This document shows positions 11,906 to 50,949 of a stretch of 64,000 nt of DNA, one piece after another. The stretch covers positions 128,001 to 192,000 of the forward strand of contig CAWIBO010000003.1 in NCBI GenBank assembly GCA_963834385.1. Direction: 5' to 3'. The position numbers were made by a program, and so were the translations under genes. This DNA is from an uncultured Verrucomicrobiae bacterium. Lineage in GTDB: Bacteria; Verrucomicrobiota; Verrucomicrobiia; Chthoniobacterales; UBA10450. A model generated the notes under the pieces. That model made no database searches and had not been told where the DNA came from. It saw only the letters and a list, made by a program, of their open reading frames with translations. Each line of letters opens with the position of its first letter. Position 1 is the first letter of the stretch.

Positions 11906-12074
11906 CGGTAGGGCGACGCTCTGCGGAGCCTGGGAGCACGCGCCGCCAGCTGTGAAACGAGGGCTAACTCCCGGCTCTTCGTCTTCCTCTGCTCTTTCTC
12001 GGTGCCCTCTGCGGTCTCTGTGGTAAGTCTCCTGGTTCGCCTGCTCCCAGGCTCGACGGAGTCTCGCCCCACCG
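11906..12074. repeat. REP/REPIN-like inverted doublet
   Basis: 33-nt arms 11906-11938 and 12042-12074 are reverse complements at 27/33 positions and carry GTAG/GTGG near their outer ends. Confidence 0.65.
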
Positions 12075-12103
12075 GGTGGTCTGGACGCGGGCGAAAATGT
12101 CCT

Positions 12104-13873
12104 CTACAGGACTTCAGGCCACTTGGCCTCGTCCTTGAGCATGATCTCGCGGAGAAGACGGATGGGGGGCATCCCCTGGTCGAGCATGGTGTCGTGAAAC
12201 TTCTGGAGGGAGAACTTGTCGCCCTCCTGCGCCTTGTAATCGTCGCGCAGCTTGAGGATCTGCAGTTTGCCGAGGGTGTAATTGAGGTAACCGGGATCAT
12301 AGGTGCCGCGCATGGCCTCAGCCCGGGCCGGTTTTTCCTCATAATAACTGTTCTCCATGAAGAAACGCGTGGCCTCGTCCACGGTCATGTTCTCCGTGTG
12401 CATCTTCACGGAAACGCAGAGCCGGCAGAGCCGGAGGAGCGCTTCCATGGCCTGGGCCATGCGGTATTTGGCCGCGCGCGCCTCATCCTGCCCGGGCGCG
12501 CCGTCCGCGGCGGGGCTGCGGCCGAAGCCTTCGTCGAGCATCATCTTCTCGGTGTAATGGGCCCAGCCCTCGATGAAGGCGTAGCTGCCGAAGATTTTCT
12601 CGAGCCGGTTGGCGGAGGAAGCGTTGAGGCGAAGGAACTGGGTGTAATGGCCGGGGTAGGCCTCGTGGATGGAGACCACGTCGGTGGTGTAATAGTTGAA
12701 CTGGCTCAGCCACTCTTCCTGCTGGTTCTCCGGCCAGTCCGGCTCCACCGGGGTCACATAATAGTAAGCCTCCTTGGCCTTGCGCTCGAAAGGCCCGGGC
12801 GTGTCCATCGAGGCCGTGCTCGTGGCGCGCTGATACTGCGGGGTTTCTTTCACCTTCACCCGGACCTCGGAGGGAATGGTGACCAGCTTGTTTTCCACGA
12901 CGAACTTGCGGATGGCCTCGAGATTGTTCGCCGTGTCCGGGATCAGCCCGGCGGCGGTCGGGTGTTCCTTCTGAATCAGCCTGGCCACATCCTGCGGGGG
13001 GAGGGTGGGATCAATTTTGCGAGCCGCCTCCGCAAAGGCGTCCTGTTCCTTTTTTAATTCGCGCAGGCCGATCTCGAGCACGCGGGCCGGCGGCAGGTCG
13101 ACGAACTCGGTTTCCGCGAGGAGCCGGCGATATTTTTCCTCGCCCAGGGCGTAGGAGGCGGTGGCCTTGGGCAGCTTTTGTTTTTCCAGCCAGGCGGCGT
13201 AATCGGTCAGGGCCATGGCGGCTTTGCGGTTGGTCTCGGCGAAGAGGGTGCGCAGCTTGTCGTCCTTGATCTCGGCCACGGCGGAAACGAGGTCTTTGCG
13301 CAGGAAATCGGCGGAACCGCGCGCGATCTGGATGGCCAGCTCGACGTGGGGCCGGGGAAGTTCCTGGGCGAGGTTGGTGCGCGCGGCAATCATGACGTTG
13401 GGCGCCTGCGCCAGGATGGAAACGATGTTGCGGACGCGGTCCTCCAGCGGACCGAAATTGCGCGCGATGTAGATGTTGACGTCAATGGCGCCGGCGTAGG
13501 TCATCGGGTTCATCTCGTAAACCCGCATGTCCTCGATGCGGAAAAGTTCGCGGCTGATGGCGGACTGGAGGATGCGCAGGTCGATGCCGTTGCGAGGGGT
13601 GAGTTTGCCCAGCTCGAATTTTTGCAGGCGGTCATCAAAACGCCCGAGCCGGTGCAGTTCGGCCTCGACCCCGAGGGCGGTGTAATCCGCAATCTTGCCG
13701 TCATACTCATGATAGCCGAGGGCCACGGCCTCGAGCGGGCGCGCCTTCAGGTAACCGCTGATGAATTCCTCCGCGACCCGGGCGAAATCGGCGTCGTCGT
13801 TCTGGGCCAGCGCCGGCGTGAGAGTCATGAGGAGAAAGCCAAGGAAGAACGGAAGGAGGCGCAAGGGAATCAT
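12104..13873 (-). CDS. DUF885 family secreted protein (putative metallopeptidase)
   Basis: Signal peptide MIPLRLL..ALA; HEAYPGHY, FIEGWAHYTE and YTLGKLQILKLR motifs. Confidence 0.9.
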   Translation of the reverse strand: MIPLRLLPFFLGFLLMTLTPALAQNDDADFARVAEEFISGYLKARPLEAVALGYHEYDGKIADYTALGVEAELHRLGRFDDRLQKFELGKLTPRNGIDLRILQSAISRELFRIEDMRVYEMNPMTYAGAIDVNIYIARNFGPLEDRVRNIVSILAQAPNVMIAARTNLAQELPRPHVELAIQIARGSADFLRKDLVSAVAEIKDDKLRTLFAETNRKAAMALTDYAAWLEKQKLPKATASYALGEEKYRRLLAETEFVDLPPARVLEIGLRELKKEQDAFAEAARKIDPTLPPQDVARLIQKEHPTAAGLIPDTANNLEAIRKFVVENKLVTIPSEVRVKVKETPQYQRATSTASMDTPGPFERKAKEAYYYVTPVEPDWPENQQEEWLSQFNYYTTDVVSIHEAYPGHYTQFLRLNASSANRLEKIFGSYAFIEGWAHYTEKMMLDEGFGRSPAADGAPGQDEARAAKYRMAQAMEALLRLCRLCVSVKMHTENMTVDEATRFFMENSYYEEKPARAEAMRGTYDPGYLNYTLGKLQILKLRDDYKAQEGDKFSLQKFHDTMLDQGMPPIRLLREIMLKDEAKWPEVL

Positions 13874-39540: not shown

Positions 39541-39616
<76 letters not shown>

Positions 39617-40134: not shown

Positions 40135-40167
40135 GACCGCGTTGCGGGTTCGAGCCGCAACGCGGTC
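40135..40167. terminator. Strong hairpin between convergent osmC and peptide A (probable bidirectional terminator)
   Basis: 13-bp perfect stem GACCGCGTTGCGG/CCGCAACGCGGTC. Confidence 0.6.
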
Positions 40168-40185: not shown

Positions 40186-40344
40186 CTACCAGAGGTTCTT
40201 GTTTTTTCCCCCGCCGCCTTTTCCGCCCCCGCCTCCCCCGCCACCGGAGGAGCTGTTGTTCTTGTTCTTATTTCCACCCTTCTTGCCGCCACCTTTGGCG
40301 TCTTTGCTGGGTTTCAGGTCGCGAACTTTAGGTTTAGTTGGCAT
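40186..40344 (-). CDS. Double-glycine leader precursor peptide A (52 aa; absent from ORF track)
   Basis: Manual translation MPTKPKVRDLKPSKDAKGG-GKKGGNKNKNNSSSGGGGGGGGKGGGGKNKNLW*; A-rich leader; paralogous to peptide B. Confidence 0.8.
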   Translation of the reverse strand: MPTKPKVRDLKPSKDAKGGGKKGGNKNKNNSSSGGGGGGGGKGGGGKNKNLW

Positions 40345-40416
40345 TTACTTGTTTTTTTTGTTTTTGGGTTCGTCGCGTTGGGGATTGGACCCTCTGCGAT
40401 GAAGGTTGGTCGGTCT

Positions 40417-40618
40417 TTAGTTGTTCTTGTTACCGAAGCCGCCGCCTTTTCCGCCGCCGCCGCCGCTCGCTGCCGCCGCCGACGTTATTTCCTTTGCTTC
40501 CCCCGCCGCCGAGGTTGTTGCTCTTGGATTTACCGCCGCCGCCGCCGCCTTTGGCGTCTTTCTGGGGCTCCAGGTCGCGGATTGTTGGTTCGGGTTTCGG
40601 GTCGTTTTGTTTGTCCAT
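40417..40618 (-). CDS. Double-glycine leader precursor peptide B (probable 1-nt indel near 40468)
   Basis: MDKQNDPKPEPTIRDLEPQKDAKGG-GGGGKSKSNNLGGGGSKGNNVGGGS, then ERRRRRKRRRLR* as read or SGGGGGKGGGFGNKNN* in the shifted frame. Confidence 0.78.
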
Positions 40619-40624
40619 GGTGTG

Positions 40625-40807
40625 TTACTGGTTGTGTTGGTTTGTTGGTTTGTTATCTGAAGAGGCCCCGAAGATCTGCCTTCCGCCGCTGACATCCCCT
40701 TTTGGGAGAAGATCATCGAGCCGGATCAGCTTTTCTTTTCTGCGCTTGGGCTTCCGGGCTTCTGGCCCTTCTGCCGGCGCATTTTCTGTATCCTTCGAGT
40801 CGCTCAC
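40625..40807 (-). CDS. Double-glycine leader peptide C (non-Gly-rich core)
   Basis: ...KLIRLDDLLPKGDVSGG-RQIFGASSDNKPTNQHNQ*; GTG 40807 preferred over ATG 40846 because the sigma54 site lies between them. Confidence 0.65.
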   Translation of the reverse strand: MSDSKDTENAPAEGPEARKPKRRKEKLIRLDDLLPKGDVSGGRQIFGASSDNKPTNQHNQ

Positions 40808-40822
40808 GTTGCCCAATACATT

Positions 40823-40838
40823 ATCAGTATCCGTGCCA
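40823..40838 (-). promoter_or_regulatory. sigma54 -24/-12 promoter for the peptide genes
   Basis: TGGCACGGATACTGAT = TGGCACG-N4-CTGAT (GG-N10-GA variant of GG-N10-GC). Confidence 0.6.
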
Positions 40839-40887
40839 GACCCCATTTTCCGTCCTTAACGAACCTCGACAATAATGTATAAGACAC

Positions 40888-40906
40888 TGTAAACGAGAAG
40901 GTTACA
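40888..40906. promoter_or_regulatory. Candidate upstream activator sequence
   Basis: TGTAA-N9-TTACA palindrome about 75-95 nt upstream of the predicted sigma54 TSS, in an AT-rich spacer. Confidence 0.45.
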
Positions 40907-40988
40907 AAGAGGCAAATGAGCGAAAATAGGTTGAAAGCGGTCTCGGCGAAACCCTTAAAAAGGCACTAAAACGATACATCCACTGGCC

Positions 40989-42029
40989 TTATTCTGACCC
41001 TTCGGTGGTCGAGTTCTGGGCCATTGCTCGCAAATGGCGGGCAAGGGTGGCACGCGAGATTCCCAGCATCCGGGCGGTCCGCCGTTGGTTGCCGTTCATG
41101 TGACTGTAGACCGCCCGGATATGGCGCTGCACCGCGCTGCTCAGGGACAGGTCGTGATTCTCCTCCGTGGGGCCAGGCGCAAGACCCGAAGCGGCTGCGG
41201 CCGGCGGATCTCCCGGGCCGGGGTTTGTCACGGCCGCGTGGGAAACGGCCAGGTCAGGCGGGAAAACGACGTGGTGGGGCATGATGACCGAGCCCTCGCA
41301 AAACAGAGTCATGGTGCGAACGGTGTGGCTGAGTTCGCGCAGGTTTCCCCGCCAGTCGTGCGCGAGCAGCTTGGCCATGGCCGTGGGGTGAATGGCGGTG
41401 ATTTCCTTGCCTTCGCTCGCCGCGGAATGTTTCAGCTCGCCGGCGATCAACGGGGGCAGCTCTTCCAGGCGTTCACGCAAGGGCGGGATGAGGAGGGTCA
41501 GGCCGTTCAGGCGATGGTAGAGATCCTCCCGAAACTTTCCCTGGCGAACGCGTTCCCGCAGCGAGCAGTTGGTGGCGCAGATGATGCGAACGTCGGAGGT
41601 CAGCATCCGTTCCGACCCAAGCCGCTCGAATTCCCCGTATTCGAGTGCCCGCAGGACCTTGACCTGGGCGAGCGCGCTCATGTCCGCGATTTCGTCGAGG
41701 AAGAGGGTGCCGCCGTCCGCCAGCTCGAACTTTCCCTTCACCGTCTGCTGCGCTCCGGTGAAGGCGCCCCGTTCATGACCAAAGAGCTGGGATTCGAGGA
41801 GAGAATCGGTCATGGCCGAGGCGTTAAAGGCGATGAACGGCTGTTTGGCCCGGGTGGAGGAGTTGTGAATGGCGTGGGCCAGGAGCGTCTTGCCGGTCCC
41901 GGTCTCCCCGAGGAGGACGACGGGAACGTCGGAGCGGGCGGCGAGGGCGGCGAGGCGCAGGCAGCGGGCCATGGCCTCATTCGTCGTGGCCAAATCCTCC
42001 ACGCGCAGGTCGGAGAGCGTCCGCTGCAT
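40989..42029 (-). CDS. sigma54-dependent enhancer-binding protein lacking an N-terminal regulatory domain
   Basis: GETGTGKT, ESQLFGHERGAFTGA, LFLDEI, FREDLYHRL, WRGNLREL and Fis-type HTH GNQRRTARMLGISRATL. Confidence 0.92.
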   Translation of the reverse strand: MQRTLSDLRVEDLATTNEAMARCLRLAALAARSDVPVVLLGETGTGKTLLAHAIHNSSTRAKQPFIAFNASAMTDSLLESQLFGHERGAFTGAQQTVKGKFELADGGTLFLDEIADMSALAQVKVLRALEYGEFERLGSERMLTSDVRIICATNCSLRERVRQGKFREDLYHRLNGLTLLIPPLRERLEELPPLIAGELKHSAASEGKEITAIHPTAMAKLLAHDWRGNLRELSHTVRTMTLFCEGSVIMPHHVVFPPDLAVSHAAVTNPGPGDPPAAAASGLAPGPTEENHDLSLSSAVQRHIRAVYSHMNGNQRRTARMLGISRATLARHLRAMAQNSTTEGSE

Positions 42030-42036
42030 CAGCCGG

Positions 42037-43207
42037 CTAGTTTACCGCGAGGTTTTCCTTGAGTTCCTTGATCGGCTCGAAGAACGACTCGATCAGGGTT
42101 CTCTTGCCGGTAACGATGCGGGCTTCGCCGCGCATCCCGACGCGCAGGGCGAGCTTGGGCGGCCTTTTTTCCCAGTCCTGGATGGTGGCGACCCCGACGA
42201 AGCGGGGTCCTTCCTGCGAGTTGACGGCGGAGGGGCTGATCCAGTCGAGACGGGCGTTGACGGCGCCATAGCGCTGGTAGGGGAAGGCGTCGAAAAAGAG
42301 CTTGGTGCTGAGCCCGGCGGTGAGCTTGGAAAGCCCGGCCTCGGAGAGGAGGAGCCGGGCTTGCGGGGTGGCCTCGACCCGGGCGAGCTGGCAGAGTTCC
42401 TGGCCATTCTGGACCACGTTGCCGACGCTGCGCTGGGAAACGGAAATAACCACGGCATCGTAGGGGGCCTGCACGGTCAGGAGGCTGAGCTGGCTGTTCT
42501 CGAGGTCGCCCTGCAGGGCGGCGAGTTTGACCCGGAGTTTCCCGATCTCCGAGACGGCATCGCCGCGCTGGCGGGCATGATCGGTCTCCATTTTTTGCCG
42601 GTCCAGGATCACCTGCTGCAGGGTTCTCTGCGCCACGCTCTGGTCCTTCTCGGACTCAGCGAGGTCGAGGCCGAGCTGGAGCAGTTCCACCTGGGAAATG
42701 CCGCCGGTCTTGGAGAGTTTCTCCATGCGCTCGACGAGTTCGCGGCTGGTGGAGGCGTGTTTCTCGCGAAATTCGACCTCGCTTTTGGCCTGCTCGATCT
42801 CGGCCTCCTTGATCTTTCTGCTGGGCGGCGAAAGCGGCATCCGCGCGTTCCAGGTTTTCCTCCTGCGCTTTGAGATCGGCCTCGGTGGTCCTGAGATCGG
42901 TGTTCCAGCTCCTGATTTCGTCCGAGCGCAGAACAAACAATTCCTCTCCCTTCTTCACCGTCTGGCCCTCGCGCGCGGCGACCTTGGTGACGACGGCCTG
43001 GCGGGGCGACTGGATCGGATCGGCGCCATCCTGCGGGACGAGGACAAACGGGCAATCCACCGTCTCCGGCAGGCGCACGATGATGGTGGCGAGGACGGCG
43101 ACAATGAACATGGCGATGAGGAGGCGGGAAGCCGCCCGGATGATCCAGGGGGGTGGATCCTGCGGGAGCATTTCCGACTCGGACTCGAAGGAATTGGAGG
43201 ACGCCAT
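42037..43207 (-). CDS. HlyD-family membrane-fusion adaptor (frameshift near 42815)
   Basis: N-terminal TM, lipoyl-like REGQTVKKGEELF, coiled coil, FDAFPYQRYG and LRVGMRGEARIVTGKRTLIE. Confidence 0.88.
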
Positions 43208-43216
43208 GGGATATGC

Positions 43217-46200
43217 CTAGTGGAAACCGGACTGCTGGCTGGAGAGATAAAAGTAGAGACCGCGCTGTTCCATGAGCTGGTCGTGATTGCCGGCCTCGGC
43301 GATGCGGCCTTTTTCCAGGACCACGATGGTATCCGCATCGCGGATGGTGCTGAGGCGGTGGGCGATGGCGAGGGTGGTGCGGCCGGCCATGAGGCGCCCG
43401 AGGTTGTTCTGGATGGCGCGCTCCGACTCGGTATCCAGGGCGCTGGTGGCCTCGTCGAAAATGAGAATCGGCGGGTTGTTATAGATGGCGCGGGCGATGG
43501 CGATGCGCTGTTTCTGCCCGCCGGAAAGGGAAAGCCCCGATTCGCCGATCTTGGTTTCGTAGCCCATGGGGAGGCGCATGATGAAATCGTGGGCGGCGGC
43601 GGCGGAAGCGGCCGCGAGGACCCGGTCGAGATCCGGCTCCGCATCCCCGAAGGCGATGTTGCGGGCGATCGTCTCGTTAAACATGTGGTTCTCCTGGAGA
43701 ACCATGCCGACGTGCCGCCGGACGTCGCGGTAATTCAGGCTCTTCAGGTCGACGTTATCGAAAAGAATGGTCCCCTCGGTCGGCTCGAGCAGTCCGGCGA
43801 TGAGCTTGATCAGGGTGGTCTTGCCGCAGCCGCTGCGCCCGACGAAGGCGATCATCTTGCCGGGGGCGATGTCGAGATTGAGGTCGCTCAGGATGTTGGG
43901 CGCCTCGGGTCCGCCGTAGCGGAAGCTGACGTTGCGCAGCTCGATCCGGCCTTCAAGGCTGTGCACCGGGGTGAGGCGGGAACGGTCGCGACCCTGCTCC
44001 GGTTCCTGCTCGAAGATGTCGTTCAGGCGATTGAGAAGAACGGAGGAGAACTGGAGATTGTCCCAGACGCCGAGGGTGCGCAGGATGCCGCCGTAAGCCA
44101 TGGCGGTGAGGGAACTGAAAGCGACGAAGCCGCCGACGCTGATGGCGCCGGACATCACCTGGTTGGCCCCGACCCAGAGGAAGACAGCGGTGGAAACAAG
44201 CCCGATCGTGGTCAGGACACTGTCGTAGGACATGACGATAAAGCTGCTCCGGAAGATCTTTTTCGAGACGGCGAGGAACTCGTTCAGCATCAGGTCGCGA
44301 AAGACGCCCTCGGCCGCGGCGGCTTTGACCGCCTCGATGCCCTTGATGGCGTCGATCTGGTGCGAGCTGTATTTGCCCTGGCTTTCCTCGACATCGGCAA
44401 AGAGCGGCCGCAGGATTTTGACGGAAAAATACATCAGCCCGACGTAGAAGGGGGTGGTCGCGAGGAAGGCGAACATGAGGAATGGGCTGTAGACCATCAT
44501 CAGCCCCAGGGAACCGACCAACTGGATCAGGGCCAGGAGGGCGCCGATGCCCTCGCCCACGGCGAACTGGCGGACTTCGCGGGCCCCGTCGAGACGCCGC
44601 TGGATGTCGCCGGTGCGCCGGCTCGTGAAATACGTCATGGGCAGGGAGAGGAGCTGCCGGCTGAGGAAATCGAGAATGGCGGTATCGAGACGAACCGCGG
44701 TGAAGGAGAGAAGGTATTCCTGCGCGAGCGAGGCACCCTGGACGAAGATGATCGCGAGGGCCATGCCGAGGAGAATGGTGGAAAGAAGGTCGATATCCTT
44801 TTCCACGATGACCTTGTCGACCACCATCTGGGTGAAGATGGGAAAGAGGAGCTGGAGGACGCTGATGGCGACGGAAAGGATCAGGACCTGGATGAGGATG
44901 TGCTTGAACTTCGCGATGAAGGGAAGAACCCAGTTGATGGAAGGTTTGCTCTCCGGCGCCTGTTCAAAGGCGGGCGTGTAATCAAAAAGCGCGGCGTACC
45001 CCGACCAGTTCTCCTCGAACTCCTTGCGCGGGATCTTGCGCAGGCCAAGCGCCGGGTCGGCCACGCGGACAAAAGTGTCCTGCACGTCGTAAAGGACCAT
45101 CCAGTGGTTGCCTTCCCAGTGCACGATGGCCGGGAGCGGCATGAGCGAGAGATTGCGGATGGAAACCTTGAGGGCCCGGGCGGCGAGGCCCAGTTCGTTC
45201 GCAGCCCGGCAAAGCGCCTTCAGGCTGGTCCCGTCCGTGGCGGTGTGACAAAGCTGCCGGATCCGGGCGAGGCTGACCTTGCGTCCGAAATGGCGGCAAA
45301 TCATCCCGAGACTGGCGGCGCCGCAATCCATCTCGTCGATCTGCTGGATATGCTCAAAACGCTTGATCCGGCCGGTGCGTTTCTTGAAGAAACCCTCCTC
45401 GTCGGCAAAAGGATGCTTCGGATCCTCCACCGGCGGGGGCCGTTCGGCCGCGCCATCCAGGGCCGTCTTGTCGTGCGTCCGCGTTTCCGCCGGCAGGAGC
45501 TCGGTCGAAAAATCGAGCGGGACCCGCGCCTCCGTTTCGAGCTGGTACTGGGCCAGCCGTTCCTCGAGGAGCTTTTCAAACTCGGGGAAGTGCCGCTTCA
45601 GGTCCTGCACTGCCTCGGGCTCGAGGGCCAGCAGCCGGCAATCGGAGAATGCTTCCACGGAAGCGGCGCGGGAGGACCCGTTCAGGATCGAGAGTTCGCC
45701 GAAGAAATCGCCGTCGCGGTAAAAGGCGAGATTCTTCTGGGAACCATTGTTCTGGGCAAAGGCCCGGGCGCGCCCTTTCTCGAGGATATACATGGGGCCG
45801 GCCGGCGCTCCCTCCTCGATGATGAGGTTGCCCTTTTCGACCTGCACCGGCTCGAGCTTGGCGATGAGGCTGCGGAGCGCGCTCGCGGGCAGGCGCCCAA
45901 AATTGCTGAACTCGTAGAGGAAACCCTGCAAGGCGCGATGGCGGGCCGTCAGCTCAATATGCTGCTTCAGGTCGGGGATTCTCTCGGCCAGTTCAAAAAA
46001 GTCGGTCCGGGCCAGGCGAAGCGCCTCCACCCCGGTGCTGCAGCGAACGGTGGCGGCCCGGGTGCCGCCATCGGAAAGGGCGGCTTCGCCGAAAATATCG
46101 CCCGGACGCAGGGTGCCGAGCGCGATCTCCTCTCCATTGGGCTGCATCTTGATCGCGCGCGCCCGGCCGGAAATGATGACGTAGACGGCGTCGGCGGGAT

Positions 46201-46336
46201 CGCCCTGGCGGACAATGATCTCGCCGAAATCGAACTGTTCCTCGCGGAGGAGGGGACGAAGCTTGTCGAAATGTTCCTCCGGGAGGAGCCGGAAGAGGGA
46301 GGACCGCCTGAGTAAATCTTCGTCGCGCGTCTTCAT
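43217..46336 (-). CDS. Peptidase-containing ABC transporter (2x cNMP-binding, C39 peptidase, TMD, NBD)
   Basis: FGEAAL..RAATV and FGELSIL..RAASV; QIDEMDCGAA, HWEGNHW..VADP; GRSGCGKTT, LSGGQKQR, FDEATSALD, IAHRLS; ATGA overlap with upstream gene. Confidence 0.93.
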   Translation of the reverse strand: MKTRDEDLLRRSSLFRLLPEEHFDKLRPLLREEQFDFGEIIVRQGDPADAVYVIISGRARAIKMQPNGEEIALGTLRPGDIFGEAALSDGGTRAATVRCSTGVEALRLARTDFFELAERIPDLKQHIELTARHRALQGFLYEFSNFGRLPASALRSLIAKLEPVQVEKGNLIIEEGAPAGPMYILEKGRARAFAQNNGSQKNLAFYRDGDFFGELSILNGSSRAASVEAFSDCRLLALEPEAVQDLKRHFPEFEKLLEERLAQYQLETEARVPLDFSTELLPAETRTHDKTALDGAAERPPPVEDPKHPFADEEGFFKKRTGRIKRFEHIQQIDEMDCGAASLGMICRHFGRKVSLARIRQLCHTATDGTSLKALCRAANELGLAARALKVSIRNLSLMPLPAIVHWEGNHWMVLYDVQDTFVRVADPALGLRKIPRKEFEENWSGYAALFDYTPAFEQAPESKPSINWVLPFIAKFKHILIQVLILSVAISVLQLLFPIFTQMVVDKVIVEKDIDLLSTILLGMALAIIFVQGASLAQEYLLSFTAVRLDTAILDFLSRQLLSLPMTYFTSRRTGDIQRRLDGAREVRQFAVGEGIGALLALIQLVGSLGLMMVYSPFLMFAFLATTPFYVGLMYFSVKILRPLFADVEESQGKYSSHQIDAIKGIEAVKAAAAEGVFRDLMLNEFLAVSKKIFRSSFIVMSYDSVLTTIGLVSTAVFLWVGANQVMSGAISVGGFVAFSSLTAMAYGGILRTLGVWDNLQFSSVLLNRLNDIFEQEPEQGRDRSRLTPVHSLEGRIELRNVSFRYGGPEAPNILSDLNLDIAPGKMIAFVGRSGCGKTTLIKLIAGLLEPTEGTILFDNVDLKSLNYRDVRRHVGMVLQENHMFNETIARNIAFGDAEPDLDRVLAAASAAAAHDFIMRLPMGYETKIGESGLSLSGGQKQRIAIARAIYNNPPILIFDEATSALDTESERAIQNNLGRLMAGRTTLAIAHRLSTIRDADTIVVLEKGRIAEAGNHDQLMEQRGLYFYLSSQQSGFH

Positions 46337-47415
46337 TCTTCGATCATCTGGTAAAAGAGGCGCCACTGGATGTGGACGCCGCAAAGCTCGTCGAAGTGGC
46401 GCTGCAGGATGGCCTGCTGCACCCGGCCGCTGACCATCTCGTCCTCCAGGCTGGGTTCGATCTTGCTGGTGACCCGTCCGATCTCAAAAACGTCTCCCTG
46501 CTCGATCGGCCCGAGGACCGCACCGGGCGAAACGCTGAGATATTTTTGTTGCCAGTCCTCGTTCACGTTTTCGAGCACCACCTGCGACTGGCGATAGGGA
46601 TACCCTCCTTCGTCCGCCACTTCCTTCATGGTCATGCCGTCTTCGCGTACGCAAAGCAAGGCTTCATTCGCCGCATCAAGTGAATCAAACTGGATCACCT
46701 CGAGCTCGAAACGGGTCAGGGGCAGACGGAGGGAGGATAGTTCCTCGGCCCGCGCCTGCGGGTTCACGAGAGAGCCACTGCGGGCGCGGTAGGCGGCTTC
46801 CGCCTCCAGGGCGTGGTCCAGCCAGGCCTTTTCGCGATCGATCTGTCCCAGCCAGGCCTCGACCTCCTCCTCCCGGAGCCCGTGGCGCTCGAGAAATTCC
46901 TCCCGGGCCCGGGCAACCGCCGCCGGGTCCACCTCTTCTTCAGCCCGTCGCACGGCCACCCGCCAGCCCAGCTGCGTGGCGATCCGTTCGAGCTCGTCGG
47001 AGAAAAGAAGGTGGGCGGCAAAAAGTTCCTTCAGCTCTTTCCCGGCCCCGGGGTAGGCCTGGTCGGGGAGGTCGATTCTGACTGTCCGCGCCCAGTAACG
47101 GCGGCTGAAGAAGTCGCCGAAATCATTCATGTCGAGCCCGCGGGCGGAGAGCCATTTCTCCGTCTCCTCCGCCGTGATCAGGTCGTGCTGATAACGAAAG
47201 GCGTCCGCGGCTTCGTCGAGGGCGTCCCCCTCGATCTCCAGGTCATCCTGGTGGGCCTTTTTTTCCGCCTCCACTCCCCGCAGGAAGTCCGCCCAAATCG
47301 GGCCCAACTCTCCGCGGAAAAGGGCGCCATCAATCACATCGCGCAAGGTGTAAGTCTGGTTACCCGACTCAAATACCGTTACATCCTGCCGTGCCTTTTC
47401 CTCTGTCGCGGTCAT
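46333..47415 (-). CDS. Degenerate SurA/parvulin (PpiC)-like cytoplasmic chaperone
   Basis: AADAFRYQHDLITAEETEKWL helical N-domain; C-terminal SPGAVLGPIEQGDVFEIGRV..EPSLED parvulin-like pattern; no signal peptide. Confidence 0.6.
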   Translation of the reverse strand: MTATEEKARQDVTVFESGNQTYTLRDVIDGALFRGELGPIWADFLRGVEAEKKAHQDDLEIEGDALDEAADAFRYQHDLITAEETEKWLSARGLDMNDFGDFFSRRYWARTVRIDLPDQAYPGAGKELKELFAAHLLFSDELERIATQLGWRVAVRRAEEEVDPAAVARAREEFLERHGLREEEVEAWLGQIDREKAWLDHALEAEAAYRARSGSLVNPQARAEELSSLRLPLTRFELEVIQFDSLDAANEALLCVREDGMTMKEVADEGGYPYRQSQVVLENVNEDWQQKYLSVSPGAVLGPIEQGDVFEIGRVTSKIEPSLEDEMVSGRVQQAILQRHFDELCGVHIQWRLFYQMIEE

Positions 47416-47534
47416 GAACCGCTTGTTTTATGATAATTGGTCGGAAGAAGTCCAGAGAACCTTGCCGGTCGCCCGACGATCGTGGCTGCAGGCGCGCGCA
47501 GCGCCGATCGACTCTTCGGCAGGAAGCAGGATGA

Positions 47535-48062
47535 TCAGGCCGCGAGCAGCGGGGAAACCGGACGGGCGGATTCAACACCCCCGAACTTCGGATAAAGAAA
47601 GCGAGCCACCACGCTGGAGCGCTTGGCCAGGGCCGACGCCCGCCGCAATCCGGCCTCGGCGAGGAGGTGGAGAGCGCTTTCCATGAGCAGGGCGGCAAAG
47701 CCCCGGTTCCGATATTCCATCAGGATGCAGGGTCCGGGGGCGAGGTGATACTCCGACTCCGGGTCGAGGGAGAGCATGGTGGCGCCGATGATGCGCTGGC
47801 CATGCTTGAGCACGAGACCGGCATGCAAACCGCTCTCGGGGGCAAAGGCTCCCTCCAGCCATTGGTCGATCAACTCGCTCATTTCCTGAAGCTCCGGGTT
47901 CCACGACGAATCGAGGACGAAGGAGGTGGCAATGGCCCGGCGGATTTCCTGCTCGTCGCCTTCCTCTGCGGGCAGGACGCGATAATGTTCCGGCGCGCCG
48001 AGGCCGGGCGGCGGAAGCTGCGTCAAGTCCCACGAAAAACGTGTCCAGTTATCCCTTCTCAT
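47535..48062 (-). CDS. GNAT-fold acetyltransferase-like protein
   Basis: CILMEYRNRGFAALL matches the acetyl-CoA motif A (R/Q-x-x-G-x-A); FLYPKFG end motif. Confidence 0.65.
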   Translation of the reverse strand: MRRDNWTRFSWDLTQLPPPGLGAPEHYRVLPAEEGDEQEIRRAIATSFVLDSSWNPELQEMSELIDQWLEGAFAPESGLHAGLVLKHGQRIIGATMLSLDPESEYHLAPGPCILMEYRNRGFAALLMESALHLLAEAGLRRASALAKRSSVVARFLYPKFGGVESARPVSPLLAA

Positions 48063-48214
48063 AAGTCGGGGGCGCCCGGTCGAGAGACCGGAAACAACCC
48101 TTCCCGGAGGTGTTAACGCGGCAACCATGGTTGTGAGACGCACTTTCCTGCGTCACCCAAGTTAAAATCGTGGCGCCGCCCCTCCCCGGATGGGACAAAA
48201 CGGCGCGGTTGGCT

Positions 48215-48682
48215 TCAGATCGACTGGACGGCCTTCATCGTCTCGTGGAACGACTGGTAAAGTTCGCGGTATTGGGCGACGCCGCGGCGAAGGACCGGCT
48301 TGAAGTTGGCGAGGTCGGCCACGTTGACGATCTGGTCAACGCTTTGCACGAAGGCGCTCATGGCGTCGTTGGTGGCGAAGCGATGGCTGAGGAGGACGAC
48401 GAAGTGCTGGCGGCGCTGGGCGCCGGTCGTGCTCGTCATGTAGCGCAGGATTGGGTTGGCCTGGAGGGTGGATCCCTTGAAGGTCTCGTAGATCACGACC
48501 ACATCGTAATTGTAGGTCTTGAGTTTGAGGAGAACGTCCTCCTCGTAGAGGCCGAGGTGGACCTTGTAGGAGATGTCGATCAGCTGCGGCACGATCACCT
48601 TCTGATATTGCTGGTGATCGACGCAGACGAGGGCGGTGTTATCGCCGGCGTCGAAGAAGGAGGAATCGTTGGTCTGGATCAT
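48215..48682 (-). CDS. Hypothetical protein with receiver-like alpha/beta fold, pilT-associated
   Basis: ALVCVD, YDVVVIYE and TNDAMSAF..SVD pattern; cotranscribed after pilU. Confidence 0.65.
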   Translation of the reverse strand: MIQTNDSSFFDAGDNTALVCVDHQQYQKVIVPQLIDISYKVHLGLYEEDVLLKLKTYNYDVVVIYETFKGSTLQANPILRYMTSTTGAQRRQHFVVLLSHRFATNDAMSAFVQSVDQIVNVADLANFKPVLRRGVAQYRELYQSFHETMKAVQSI

Positions 48683-48688
48683 GGCGGT

Positions 48689-49855
48689 TTAGCGGAAGGC
48701 GTTGGCGGGAAGGTCGAGGCGAAGTCCGGAATCGAGGTCGCTGTCGATGCCGCGCGCCTTCTGAATCAGGTCGAGCCCGCGGGCGATCCGGCCTTTGCGG
48801 CTGGCATAAAGCCGGGCCGTGTTTTCGTCGATGGCGCCGTTTTCGTAGGCATTGAGGATCGACTGGTCGAAGGTGAGCCAGCCGAAGGGGGTGCTGGCCT
48901 CGATGATTTCGTAGAAGTTGCGGTGTTCACCTTCGCCAAGAGCGATGGTTTCCTTGGTCCGCAGATTGTTGCCCATGATCTCGGCAAGGAGATGACGGCC
49001 GCCGCCGGCCCGGGGGACGAGGCGCTGGCTCACGATGTAGCGAAGGGTGTCGGAAAGGCGGAGGCGCAACTGCTGTTCTTCGCCGAGGGAGAAGAGGCCG
49101 AGGATGCGGTTGATCGACTGGCCGGCGTCGACCGTGTGCAGGGTGCTGAGGACGAGGTGACCGGTCTCGGCCGCCATGAGGGCGACCTCGACGGTGGCGC
49201 GGTCGCGCATTTCGCCTACGAGGATGACCTTGGGAGCCTGGCGCAGGGCGGCGCGCAGGCCGTTGGGATAGTTGTTAAAATCGTGGCCCAGCTCGCGCTG
49301 ATTAAAGGTGGCGCGGTGAGACCGGTGGATGAACTCGATCGGGTCCTCCAGGGTCACGATATGCACGGCCTGCTTTTCGTTGATCTCGTTCAGGAGAGCG
49401 GCCAGCGTCGTGGTCTTGCCGCTGCCGGTGGCGCCGGTGACCAGGATAAGGCCGGTCTTTTCGCGCGCGATCTCCTCGAAGATGGGCGGCAGTTCGAGGC
49501 CGCCCAGCGTCGGGATCTGGGCCTGCAGCTTGCGCATGACAATGGAGAACTGGCCCTGTTGCCGGAAGATATTGACGCGGAAACGCGCCTCCTCCCCCAG
49601 GGTGTAGCTGCAGTCGCAGGAGCCCCCAGTGAGATAATCGTAGAGAAGACGACGGTTGCCCTGCATCAAAGTCAGGGCGATCTGCTCGGTCTGGTGCGGC
49701 GTCAGGGCCTCAATCGGCGGATCGACGAAGACCGGCTTGAGTTCGCCGAAGTCCTCCACCTGGAGGGGACGGCCGACGGAAAAATTGAGGTCGGAAATGC
49801 CGTCATACGTCTGCAGCATGGCCGAAAGAATGCGGTCGAGGTCGGGAATTCGCAT
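48689..49855 (-). CDS. pilU: PilT/PilU-family type IV pilus retraction ATPase (paralog 2)
   Basis: GATGSGKTT, TLEDPIE, LRQAPKVILVGEMRD and ETGHLVLSTLHT. Confidence 0.88.
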   Translation of the reverse strand: MRIPDLDRILSAMLQTYDGISDLNFSVGRPLQVEDFGELKPVFVDPPIEALTPHQTEQIALTLMQGNRRLLYDYLTGGSCDCSYTLGEEARFRVNIFRQQGQFSIVMRKLQAQIPTLGGLELPPIFEEIAREKTGLILVTGATGSGKTTTLAALLNEINEKQAVHIVTLEDPIEFIHRSHRATFNQRELGHDFNNYPNGLRAALRQAPKVILVGEMRDRATVEVALMAAETGHLVLSTLHTVDAGQSINRILGLFSLGEEQQLRLRLSDTLRYIVSQRLVPRAGGGRHLLAEIMGNNLRTKETIALGEGEHRNFYEIIEASTPFGWLTFDQSILNAYENGAIDENTARLYASRKGRIARGLDLIQKARGIDSDLDSGLRLDLPANAFR

Positions 49856-49866
49856 GGCGGGGCGAT

Positions 49867-50949
49867 TTATTCGTCGGTGAGGTCGGTCGGCGGGTTCTTG
49901 AGGAAGGGCCGGAATTTTTTCTTATCGAGGCACTTGTCGTAGGCTTCCTCGGGAGAGATGCGGGCCTCGCGGAGGTGCTCCATGATGGCGTCGTCGAGCG
50001 GCTGGTTGCCCTTTTTCTTGCCCACCTGGATCATGCCGGGGATCTGGTGGGTCTTGGCCTCGCGGATCAGGTTGGCAATGGCCATGTCGACCACGAGGAT
50101 CTCGAGGGCGGCAACGCGGCCGGGCCGGTCGATGCGCTTGAACAGGTTCTGGGCGATGACGCCCTTGAGCGACTCGGCCAGGGTGGTGCGGATCTGGTTT
50201 TGCTGGCTGGTCGGGAAGACATCAACCACGCGGTCGACCGCCTTGGAGGCGCTGGAGGTGTGGAGCGTGCCGAAAACAAGGTGGCCGGTGGCGGCGGCGG
50301 TGAGCGCGAGCTCAATGGTCTCGAGGTCGCGCATTTCGCCGACGAGCAGGATATCGGGATCTTCGCGCAGGGCGCCGCGGAGGGCGGCGGCGAAGGAGCG
50401 GGTATGGACGCCCACCTCGCGGTGCTGCACCAGGCAATTCTGGCTGCGGTGCACAAACTCGATCGGGTCCTCCACCGTGATGATGTGGTCGTGCCTTTGC
50501 AGGTTCGCGTAATCCATCATGGCCGCGAGCGTGGTCGACTTGCCGGAGCCGGTCGGGCCGGTGACCAGAATGAGACCTTTTTTCAGGAGCGGAAATTTTT
50601 TCAGGACCGGCGGCAGGTTCAACTGCTCGACCGTCAGGACCGTGGAAGGAATCAGGCGGAAGACCGCGGAGATGCCGTATTTCTGCTGGAAAAAGTTGGC
50701 GCGGTAGCGGGCGACGCCCGGCACTTCATAGCCGAAATCGACGTCGGAAGTTTCCTCGAAGAGTTTGATCTTACCCTCCGGGGCGATCTCATAGACCATG
50801 GCCTTGAGTTCGTCGTTGGCGAGCGCGGGGTAGTCGACCCGGATCAGCTCGCCATTGATGCGAAGCATCGGCGGGTTGTTCGTGGAAAGGTGAAGGTCCG
50901 AGGCCTTTTGCTCGGACATAAGTTTGAAGAAAGCGTCAATGCGAGCCAT
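49867..50949 (-). CDS. pilT: Type IV pilus retraction ATPase PilT
   Basis: GPTGSGKSTT, LREDPDILLVGEMRD and AIANLIRE. Confidence 0.93.
   Translation of the reverse strand: MARIDAFFKLMSEQKASDLHLSTNNPPMLRINGELIRVDYPALANDELKAMVYEIAPEGKIKLFEETSDVDFGYEVPGVARYRANFFQQKYGISAVFRLIPSTVLTVEQLNLPPVLKKFPLLKKGLILVTGPTGSGKSTTLAAMMDYANLQRHDHIITVEDPIEFVHRSQNCLVQHREVGVHTRSFAAALRGALREDPDILLVGEMRDLETIELALTAAATGHLVFGTLHTSSASKAVDRVVDVFPTSQQNQIRTTLAESLKGVIAQNLFKRIDRPGRVAALEILVVDMAIANLIREAKTHQIPGMIQVGKKKGNQPLDDAIMEHLREARISPEEAYDKCLDKKKFRPFLKNPPTDLTDE

Follow-up and report, generated by a model that had tools for sequence, protein, structure and literature searches.

The window analysed here is a stretch of 64,000 nucleotides from an uncultured Verrucomicrobiae bacterium (Chthoniobacterales, UBA10450; GenBank assembly GCA_963834385.1, contig CAWIBO010000003.1, positions 128,001 to 192,000 of the forward strand). 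The genome assembly (G000) comprises 2.9 Mb in five contigs and is 89.6% complete. The window contains a peptide-export locus on the minus strand. It encodes a chaperone (47415-46333), a peptidase-containing ATP-binding cassette (ABC) transporter (PCAT; 46336-43217), an HlyD-type adaptor (43207-42037), a sigma-54 activator (42029-40989) and three small open reading frames (ORFs), here called ORF A, ORF B and ORF C. All genes have the same orientation. The chaperone and PCAT genes overlap by ATGA (46333-46336), and gaps of 9 nt and 7 nt separate PCAT from HlyD and HlyD from the activator. This layout had been described in an initial annotation made from the sequence, and it is correct. The domain calls of that annotation also agree with Pfam, which finds two cyclic nucleotide monophosphate (cNMP)-binding domains, a C39 peptidase and ABC domains in the PCAT, an HlyD domain in the adaptor, Sigma54_activat and HTH_8 in the activator, and a GNAT domain in the gene upstream of the chaperone. 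We propose that the locus consists of two transcription units and two classes of peptide with unmodified export, leaving the regulatory role of ORF A open; the probability of this reading is put at about 0.62.

The initial annotation recommended checking whether the gene neighbourhood is conserved among relatives. From 93 chaperone loci outside the genome itself, 40 were fetched, with long contigs favoured; together with the window these make a set of 41. The order chaperone, exporter, HlyD and activator is identical in 40/40 Chthoniobacterales loci, and the four genes can thus be considered a conserved core. Tallies across the family were made on a Chthoniobacterales family sample of 151 genomes, which includes four marked as unpublished (G002, G007, G014 and G135). 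The chaperone is present in 94 of these. It is rare outside the family (13/301 genomes of a phylum sample at E 1e-3, mostly weak matches). The wider protein family comprises 462 clusters at 50% identity at E 1e-30. Homologues of the chaperone carry the names Spartobacteria, Chthoniobacterales and Ca. Udaeobacter. A collection of genome contigs scanned with a single protein gave no match, and no chaperone match was found in a plasmid collection. Viral contigs gave a single weak ORF A match without an activator. Matches in the ESM Atlas were to hypothetical clusters only, and a public read search listed no RNA set as carrying the locus.

The PCAT (43217..46336, minus strand) is the sole C39 protein found in the genome (one PF03412 match). 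Two cNMP-binding domains, a C39 peptidase, a membrane domain and an ATPase domain are all above Pfam cut-offs. The fusion of C39 to ABC membrane and ATPase domains, beside conserved substrates with a double-glycine (GG) leader, places it in the PCAT family. Catalytic Cys and His motifs occur in 41/41 loci; the G-E...R pocket motif of the two cNMP domains, searched as a strict pattern, is found in 30/41 and 34/41. The score against HlyB and RTX type I secretion transporters (TIGR01846) is 548, below the cut-off of 725.55, and the catalytic Cys is kept. Against the NHLP bacteriocin exporter (TIGR03796) it is 538.7, below the cut-off of 853.3. The HlyD-type adaptor (42037..43207, minus strand) has TIGR01843/PF13437 matches on both of two pieces, which lie in different frames that meet near 42815; this break was not noticed in the initial annotation. 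Several genes of the OEP family are found elsewhere in the genome.

The chaperone (46333..47415, minus strand) has 360 amino acids and a net charge of -34. The structure predicted with AlphaFold2 has a mean predicted local distance difference test score (pLDDT) of 93.4. Foldseek matches it to PrsA and SurA with E values of 5e-6 to 7e-6; it has a helical cradle and a C-terminal parvulin-like domain (Z 11.4, root-mean-square deviation 2.3, 93 aligned residues). The PpiC-related peptide maturation protein of TIGR04500 likewise combines such a fold with a position beside a peptide exporter. The window chaperone, however, scores 33.3 bits against TIGR04500 (cut-off 180) and differs from that family and from SurA and PrsA in being strongly acidic and in having no signal peptide apparent by eye. 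It is therefore probably cytoplasmic. The catalytic His motif of parvulins is not evident by eye.

The activator (40989..42029, minus strand; PF00158 and PF02954) is a sigma-54 enhancer-binding protein without an N-terminal sensor domain. Only 14 residues precede its AAA domain, compared with 104-154 in the four other activators of the genome. Walker A and B, GAFTGA and the helix-turn-helix (HTH) are all intact, which identifies it as a sensor-less enhancer-binding protein, and rpoN is present elsewhere in the genome. With the PspF family model (TIGR02974) it scores 241.7, below the cut-off of 443.55.

A sigma-54-type -24/-12 promoter lies directly upstream of ORF A (40821..40838, minus strand) and is found in 40/41 ORF A upstream regions. 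It has a variant -12 box, in which TG is followed by T, A or G and not by C. The GG and the G after it do not vary; the final position is T in 17 copies, A in 11 and G in 10, and C in two copies labelled Opitutaceae. The canonical GC at the same spacing in these two copies supports the assignment to sigma-54. In a genome-wide scan with a position weight matrix the ORF A site ranks first, although the site itself was in the training set. The site ranking second in 2.9 Mb lies 69 nt ahead of an orphan precursor gene on contig C1. A first search for enhancers recovered merely the HTH coding sequence of the activator itself, and this motif was rejected. A palindrome, GGCCTnA-N3-TnAGGCC, was found in 94 related regions (14.1 bits, against 6.3 bits in shuffled sequence). 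It is weak in the window and serves as a lead only; it is possibly a binding site of the activator, with possible autoregulation. The palindrome also occurs upstream of the chaperone in L043, L050, L058, L062, L063 and L068; many cassette promoters have it 115-185 nt upstream.

The three small ORFs were annotated initially as three double-glycine precursors. All three have the pattern D-L-x-P-x-x-D-[AV]-x-G-G, but they are not equivalent, as ORF A forms a separate, conserved class. ORF A (40625..40807, minus strand) is the first gene after the promoter and encodes a 'pilot' peptide of 60 amino acids that is conserved on both sides of the GG. Its start is most likely the GTG at 40807, because the longer frame, which begins at ATG 40846, crosses the sigma-54 promoter; the ATG was rejected. 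Across 61 sequences I28, L30, D32, L33, P35, V39, G41, G42, F46 and G47 are invariant, and the third codon position varies most (0.63 vs 0.89/0.93). No Pfam family matches ORF A, and in structure prediction the peptide alone is largely disordered (pLDDT 62.8). Of the 151 genomes, 88 have ORF A and 87 the activator: 83 have both, 5 only ORF A, 4 only the activator and 59 neither. Among loci of the clade on metagenome contigs with enough DNA, 45/50 have ORF A behind the activator.

ORF B (40417..40618, minus strand) and ORF C (40186..40344, minus strand; 52 amino acids) encode the cargo. Each has a GG leader, followed by a Gly/Ser/Asn/Lys core in ORF B and a Gly/Lys/Asn core in ORF C. ORF B changes frame in a GGC tract near 40465, which also escaped the initial annotation; it stops at 40430 as assembled and at 40417 in the other frame. 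A 13-bp hairpin after ORF C (40135..40167, minus strand), predicted by RNA folding and missed by a terminator scan, is the probable end of the cassette transcript. ORF A and the cargo share one leader register (D-11, L-10, P-8, [AV]-4, G-2, G-1), and no Pfam or NCBIfam family, leader families included, matches ORFs A, B or C. The leaders are not due to chance: a position-specific scoring matrix (PSSM) run over six frames of the whole 2.9-Mb genome with a score above 12 gave three matches, namely ORF B, ORF C and the orphan on C1.

Among the 41 loci, 37 have cargo precursors beside the transporter, 53 in all, with a basic leader ending in D-L-x-P-x-K-D-A-K-G-G. For the remaining four loci the cassette lies elsewhere in the same genome. 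The adjacency of exporter and leader peptides, on which the initial annotation had staked its case, therefore stands. The 53 cores are 10-48 amino acids long and contain 22.8% Gly, 13.1% Ser, 10.1% Ala, 9.4% Asn, 7.8% Arg and 3.3% Lys. None contains Cys; aromatic residues make up 1.4%, the median net charge is +2 and the net charge is positive in 48/53. The earlier description of the products as Lys-rich and cationic thus fits the window but not the cores as a whole. Internal repeats are in excess (p<0.01) in 19 of the 44 cores of at least 20 amino acids. The first 6-8 residues after the GG have an entropy of 0.7-1.9 bits in ORF A, compared with 2.7-3.6 bits in the cargo. By their sequence, ORF B and ORF C belong to a class of hypervariable, Cys-free, low-complexity cargo precursors.

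The cassettes of promoter, ORF A and cargo appear to be portable. Twenty regions were fetched around further ORF A matches. Promoter and cargo occur together in 14/14 cassette regions (L177-L190), and ORF A reads through in 13 of these; the other six regions gave weak matches only, namely precursors that are variant or stand alone and lack the promoter pattern. The neighbours of dispersed cassettes are housekeeping genes by eye, except in L194, where a lanthipeptide lyase-kinase is found. In G099 and G107 (L183-L187) a single genome has up to four near-identical cassettes of promoter, ORF A and cargo, at unrelated sites. The orphan precursor on C1 (C1:62566; G000:C1:62479-62727; L093:7480-7728) shares the sigma-54 promoter type and has no ORF A; it adjoins a tmRNA gene on the opposite strand. 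Lone GG-leader precursors with Pro/Phe-rich cores (SIPPxGF) and no promoter match occur in L193, L195 and L196, and are possibly a second cargo class. Two further cores, LNPQPLPP... and ALNAYLKID, are encoded downstream of the activator in L218; the latter may resemble the N-terminus of Hcp-like proteins.

The GNAT acetyltransferase gene (47535..48062, minus strand; PF00583) had been counted as part of the system, and acetylation as a possible modification of its products. Neither idea is supported. The gene is absent from 40/40 related loci (about 4 kb upstream covered; 350 nt in one locus). Co-occurrence of GNAT and chaperone is at chance level, with 59 genomes having both where 57.3 would be expected by independence. 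GNAT is the last gene of a PilT/PilT-like/155-aa/GNAT block (window 47535-50949, minus strand), and in relatives its orthologues adjoin the 155-aa and PilT-like genes in 7/7 loci (one in the unpublished G014). On these three grounds GNAT was ruled out as a tailoring enzyme, and acetylation is left without support because the gene belongs to the neighbouring block. The element CT(C/G)GAC, about 41 nt upstream of the chaperone (47450..47455, minus strand), is found at -40 to -62 in 34/41 loci, the window included, and is likely the -35-type box of a promoter belonging to the chaperone operon. For this reason the operon most likely begins after GNAT. A scan for sigma-70 promoters and terminators gave results at chance level. 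Further upstream, ARAGORN calls a tRNA-Ala (49429-49513) opposite the PilT-like gene, which is probably false. At the other end, a tRNA-Phe gene (39541-39616) lies just ahead of an OsmC-like gene that is convergent with the cassette.

The leader and the transport trio are also found in more distant relatives, next to modifying genes. In L143, labelled Alphaproteobacteria, the four genes are followed by ORF A with a Cys-containing precursor and a LanC-like gene, and then by ORF A with precursors and a LanL-like kinase. These genes (L143:16499-21035) resemble a split class IV lanthipeptide system (LanC-like and lyase/kinase) that has leader, ORF A and activator in common with the window, and each cassette comes with duplicated fragments of the 3' end of the activator gene. 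In L147, an Opitutaceae record, two ORF A cassettes flank a GT4 glycosyltransferase gene. Since ORF A heads both cassettes in L143 and both in L147, it is independent of cargo chemistry. In L098 (Chthoniobacter) and L107 (Vicinamibacteria) the chaperone and transporter lie beside TPR/methyltransferase or radical-SAM genes; neither activator nor ORF A is found in the DNA covered at these two trio loci. L098 also encodes precursors with the common leader and an NHNETLV-type core (12041-12500, minus strand), beside TPR, dioxygenase-like and methyltransferase genes. As these loci pair the leader or the trio with modifying genes, the transport chassis can serve modified peptides; in the Chthoniobacterales family it is stripped of enzymes.

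The initial annotation centred on dedicated export of GG-leader peptides under a sigma-54 activator belonging to the system, with TolC supplied in trans and no tailoring enzyme encoded at the locus; this is supported. In the mechanism proposed here, the first unit would be transcribed from its own promoter and comprise the chaperone, the cNMP-C39-ABC exporter, HlyD and the sensor-less activator. The second would depend on the sigma-54 promoter and consist of ORF A, the pilot peptide, followed by one or two cargo precursors. Holding the basic, unfolded precursors, or escorting their leaders, may be the task of the acidic chaperone. The C39 domain would cut after the GG, and the exporter, HlyD and a TolC acting in trans would release the unmodified cores; this follows what is established for PCATs, and cleavage and release in this form are considered likely. 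Export is probably gated by a nucleotide signal acting on the cNMP domains.

The control of cargo transcription is more tentative. The activator has no sensor domain, and so should need a partner that holds it off. Sensor-less sigma-54 activators are held off by a product of their own regulon in the PspF/PspA and HrpRS/HrpV systems, and secretion of the inhibitors FlgM and ExsE couples transcription to export. By analogy, ORF A may inhibit the activator until it is cut at the GG or exported once the transporter runs; cargo transcription would thereby follow export activity. This role for ORF A, similar to those of PspA, FlgM and ExsE, is the reading we prefer, although we hold it to be somewhat less likely than not. 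It differs from the PspF/PspA arrangement in that ORF A is a 60-residue GG-leader peptide without a Pfam match, and its binding to the activator is only proposed.

A number of observations weigh against the proposals made so far. ORF A and the chaperone co-occur in 86 genomes, which is as tight as ORF A and the activator, so that co-occurrence cannot name the partner of ORF A. The tallies were drawn from related genomes, in which kin are not independent, and the association is overstated. ORF A could also be riding along with the promoter. With the usual sigma-54 spacing, ORF A begins only about 2-6 nt beyond the expected transcription start site, and the AGGA-like box of many copies lies upstream of that site. 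Translation from the activated transcript is therefore uncertain, and read-through transcripts may be the main source of ORF A. The HlyD gene is interrupted in the assembly, and reads leave the cause unsettled: in the segments covered, three low-share public DNA runs bridge neither frame break. Modification in trans is possible, since the genome contains a PEARL-like gene and 17 radical-SAM matches; a LanC search of the genome gave no control hit and is uninformative.

ORF A may instead help export or assembly, either by priming the transporter or chaperone or by nucleating or capping a cargo fibre, with the activator constitutive or held by the chaperone. ORF A does track the chaperone as tightly as the activator, and in many loci the ORF A stop lies within a few nucleotides of the first cargo start, suggesting coupled translation. 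However, ORF A is also kept ahead of lanthipeptide-like and glycosyltransferase-linked cargo, is not seen at the two trio loci without an activator (L098 and L107), and is missing in cis from the orphan cargo on C1. A helper role is judged unlikely.

As to the function of the cargo, self-associating surface or matrix material is preferred to a role as antimicrobial or signal. No other step of the analysis is as weak: matrix material fits the composition of the cores somewhat better than a membrane-active bacteriocin does, and the assignment is itself doubtful. Unmodified antimicrobials under diversifying selection, resembling class II bacteriocins or microcins, would fit the GG leader, the PCAT with HlyD, and the hypervariable cores of mostly positive charge. 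In the available parts of Wang et al. 2011 (PMC3140520) similar trios are classed, by prediction only, as putative bacteriocin clusters. Set against this are the lack of Cys and the scarcity of aromatic residues, the significant repetitiveness of 19/44 cores and, by eye, no conserved immunity gene beside the cassettes, and an antimicrobial role seems improbable, though it deserves more weight than the two alternatives that follow.

Another alternative is that ORF A is a pheromone, whose conserved core of 11-24 amino acids would induce the system after being sensed outside the cell or taken up again. Induction factors of class II bacteriocins act in this way. ORF A does bear an export leader, and its first 6-8 residues after the GG are conserved; but a core that is near-constant across about 25 genera would offer little specificity, the activator lacks a sensor domain, and among the flanks listed, inspected by eye, no kinase or importer was evident as a recurring neighbour. 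We consider a pheromone quite unlikely.

The cargo might also be a true ribosomally synthesised and post-translationally modified peptide (RiPP) on which an unlinked enzyme acts in trans, such as GNAT, a PEARL-like protein, a lyase-kinase or a radical-SAM enzyme. The distant loci, in which the same leader and trio adjoin LanC/kinase, radical-SAM methyltransferase, TPR/methyltransferase or GT4 genes, lend this some weight, as does the PEARL-like gene of the genome. This gene is present in 122/151 genomes but is mismatched to the system: it is found in 12/13 genomes of g17, which lacks the system, and in 0/13 of g10, where 6 have it. The lyase-kinase is found in 16/151 family genomes and not in the genome studied here, and both it and the PEARL-like gene were rejected as trans modifiers because neither tracks the system. 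Stand-alone lyase-kinase genes were recorded at L194:2892-4938 and in L198-L208, convergent with two GG precursors in G076. YcaO, PqqD/RRE and MNIO proteins were not found in the 89.6% complete genome. GNAT co-occurs at chance and the cores have no common target motif, so that modification in trans is very unlikely to be the rule for this cargo.

Least likely of all is a decaying copy of the locus with HlyD and ORF B truly broken. There are two frame breaks inside 8 kb, but each falls in a homopolymer or triplet tract, the remaining parts are all intact and the PCAT of four related loci shows such splits. In a crude test 18/112 gene bins across the assembly look split likewise, and 83 relatives are unbroken across both HlyD pieces; for these last two reasons indel error is likelier than decay. 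The two frameshifts are thus probably sequencing indels. One metagenome contig covers ORF C and differs within the ORF by 3 substitutions, with no indel.

The proposed two-unit exporter has known counterparts for its transport part. Cyanobacterial groups I, II and VI were predicted to combine a long-type C39 transporter carrying CAP_ED with HlyD and SurA (PMC3140520, available parts). Group I has the architecture seen in the window: CAP_ED-C39 transporter, HlyD, a SurA/rotamase protein and GG precursors, which are few and come without added enzymes. The cyanobacterial leader, M(R/K)ELX3E(I/L)X2(I/V)XG(G/A), is different; that of the window is basic and carries a Leu at -10 and a Pro at -8. The parts of that account available describe no sensor-less sigma-54 activator, sigma-54 cassette or pilot peptide, and the host here belongs to the Verrucomicrobiota. 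HetC of Nostoc PCC 7120 has, like the window PCAT, a cNMP domain, a C39 cysteine protease and an ABC exporter, and is thought to export a regulatory peptide (PMC10986499, available parts). According to the same source its C39 domain is an active protease, and its cNMP domain, which is required, bound ppGpp and not cAMP. HetC (PMC10986499) has one annotated cNMP domain compared with two in the window, and has neither a nearby membrane-fusion gene nor a known substrate, whereas HlyD and clear substrates are adjacent here. Literature searches, which covered few subscription papers and no supplements, returned nothing relevant on such a system in Verrucomicrobiota or on its motifs. The initial claim of an undescribed system can thus be kept for the leader family, the activator and the pilot peptide, which were not found in these searches, but not for the transport trio.

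The machine is common in the Chthoniobacterales family, including named Ca. Udaeobacter records. Ca. Udaeobacter ranks among the most abundant bacteria in soil. Most known cNMP-PCAT systems have no identified substrate; here substrates, promoter and regulator are all visible, which opens nucleotide gating of a PCAT and the part played by the SurA-like protein to direct testing. In other lineages the leader additionally marks clusters of modified peptides. The surprising part is the conserved pilot peptide together with the sensor-less activator and the portable cassettes. Taken at its widest, the proposal is that an exporter gated by a nucleotide second messenger governs the genes of its cargo, because it destroys or exports an anti-activator that bears a leader and acts on a sensor-less sigma-54 activator, that strain-specific, repeat-expanded, low-complexity peptides serve as matrix or self-identity material, and that the chassis is reused for modified RiPPs. 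That combination is, as a whole, rather unlikely to be right in every part. If true, it would place the logic of FlgM and PspA inside a bacteriocin-type exporter, across a dominant family of soil bacteria.

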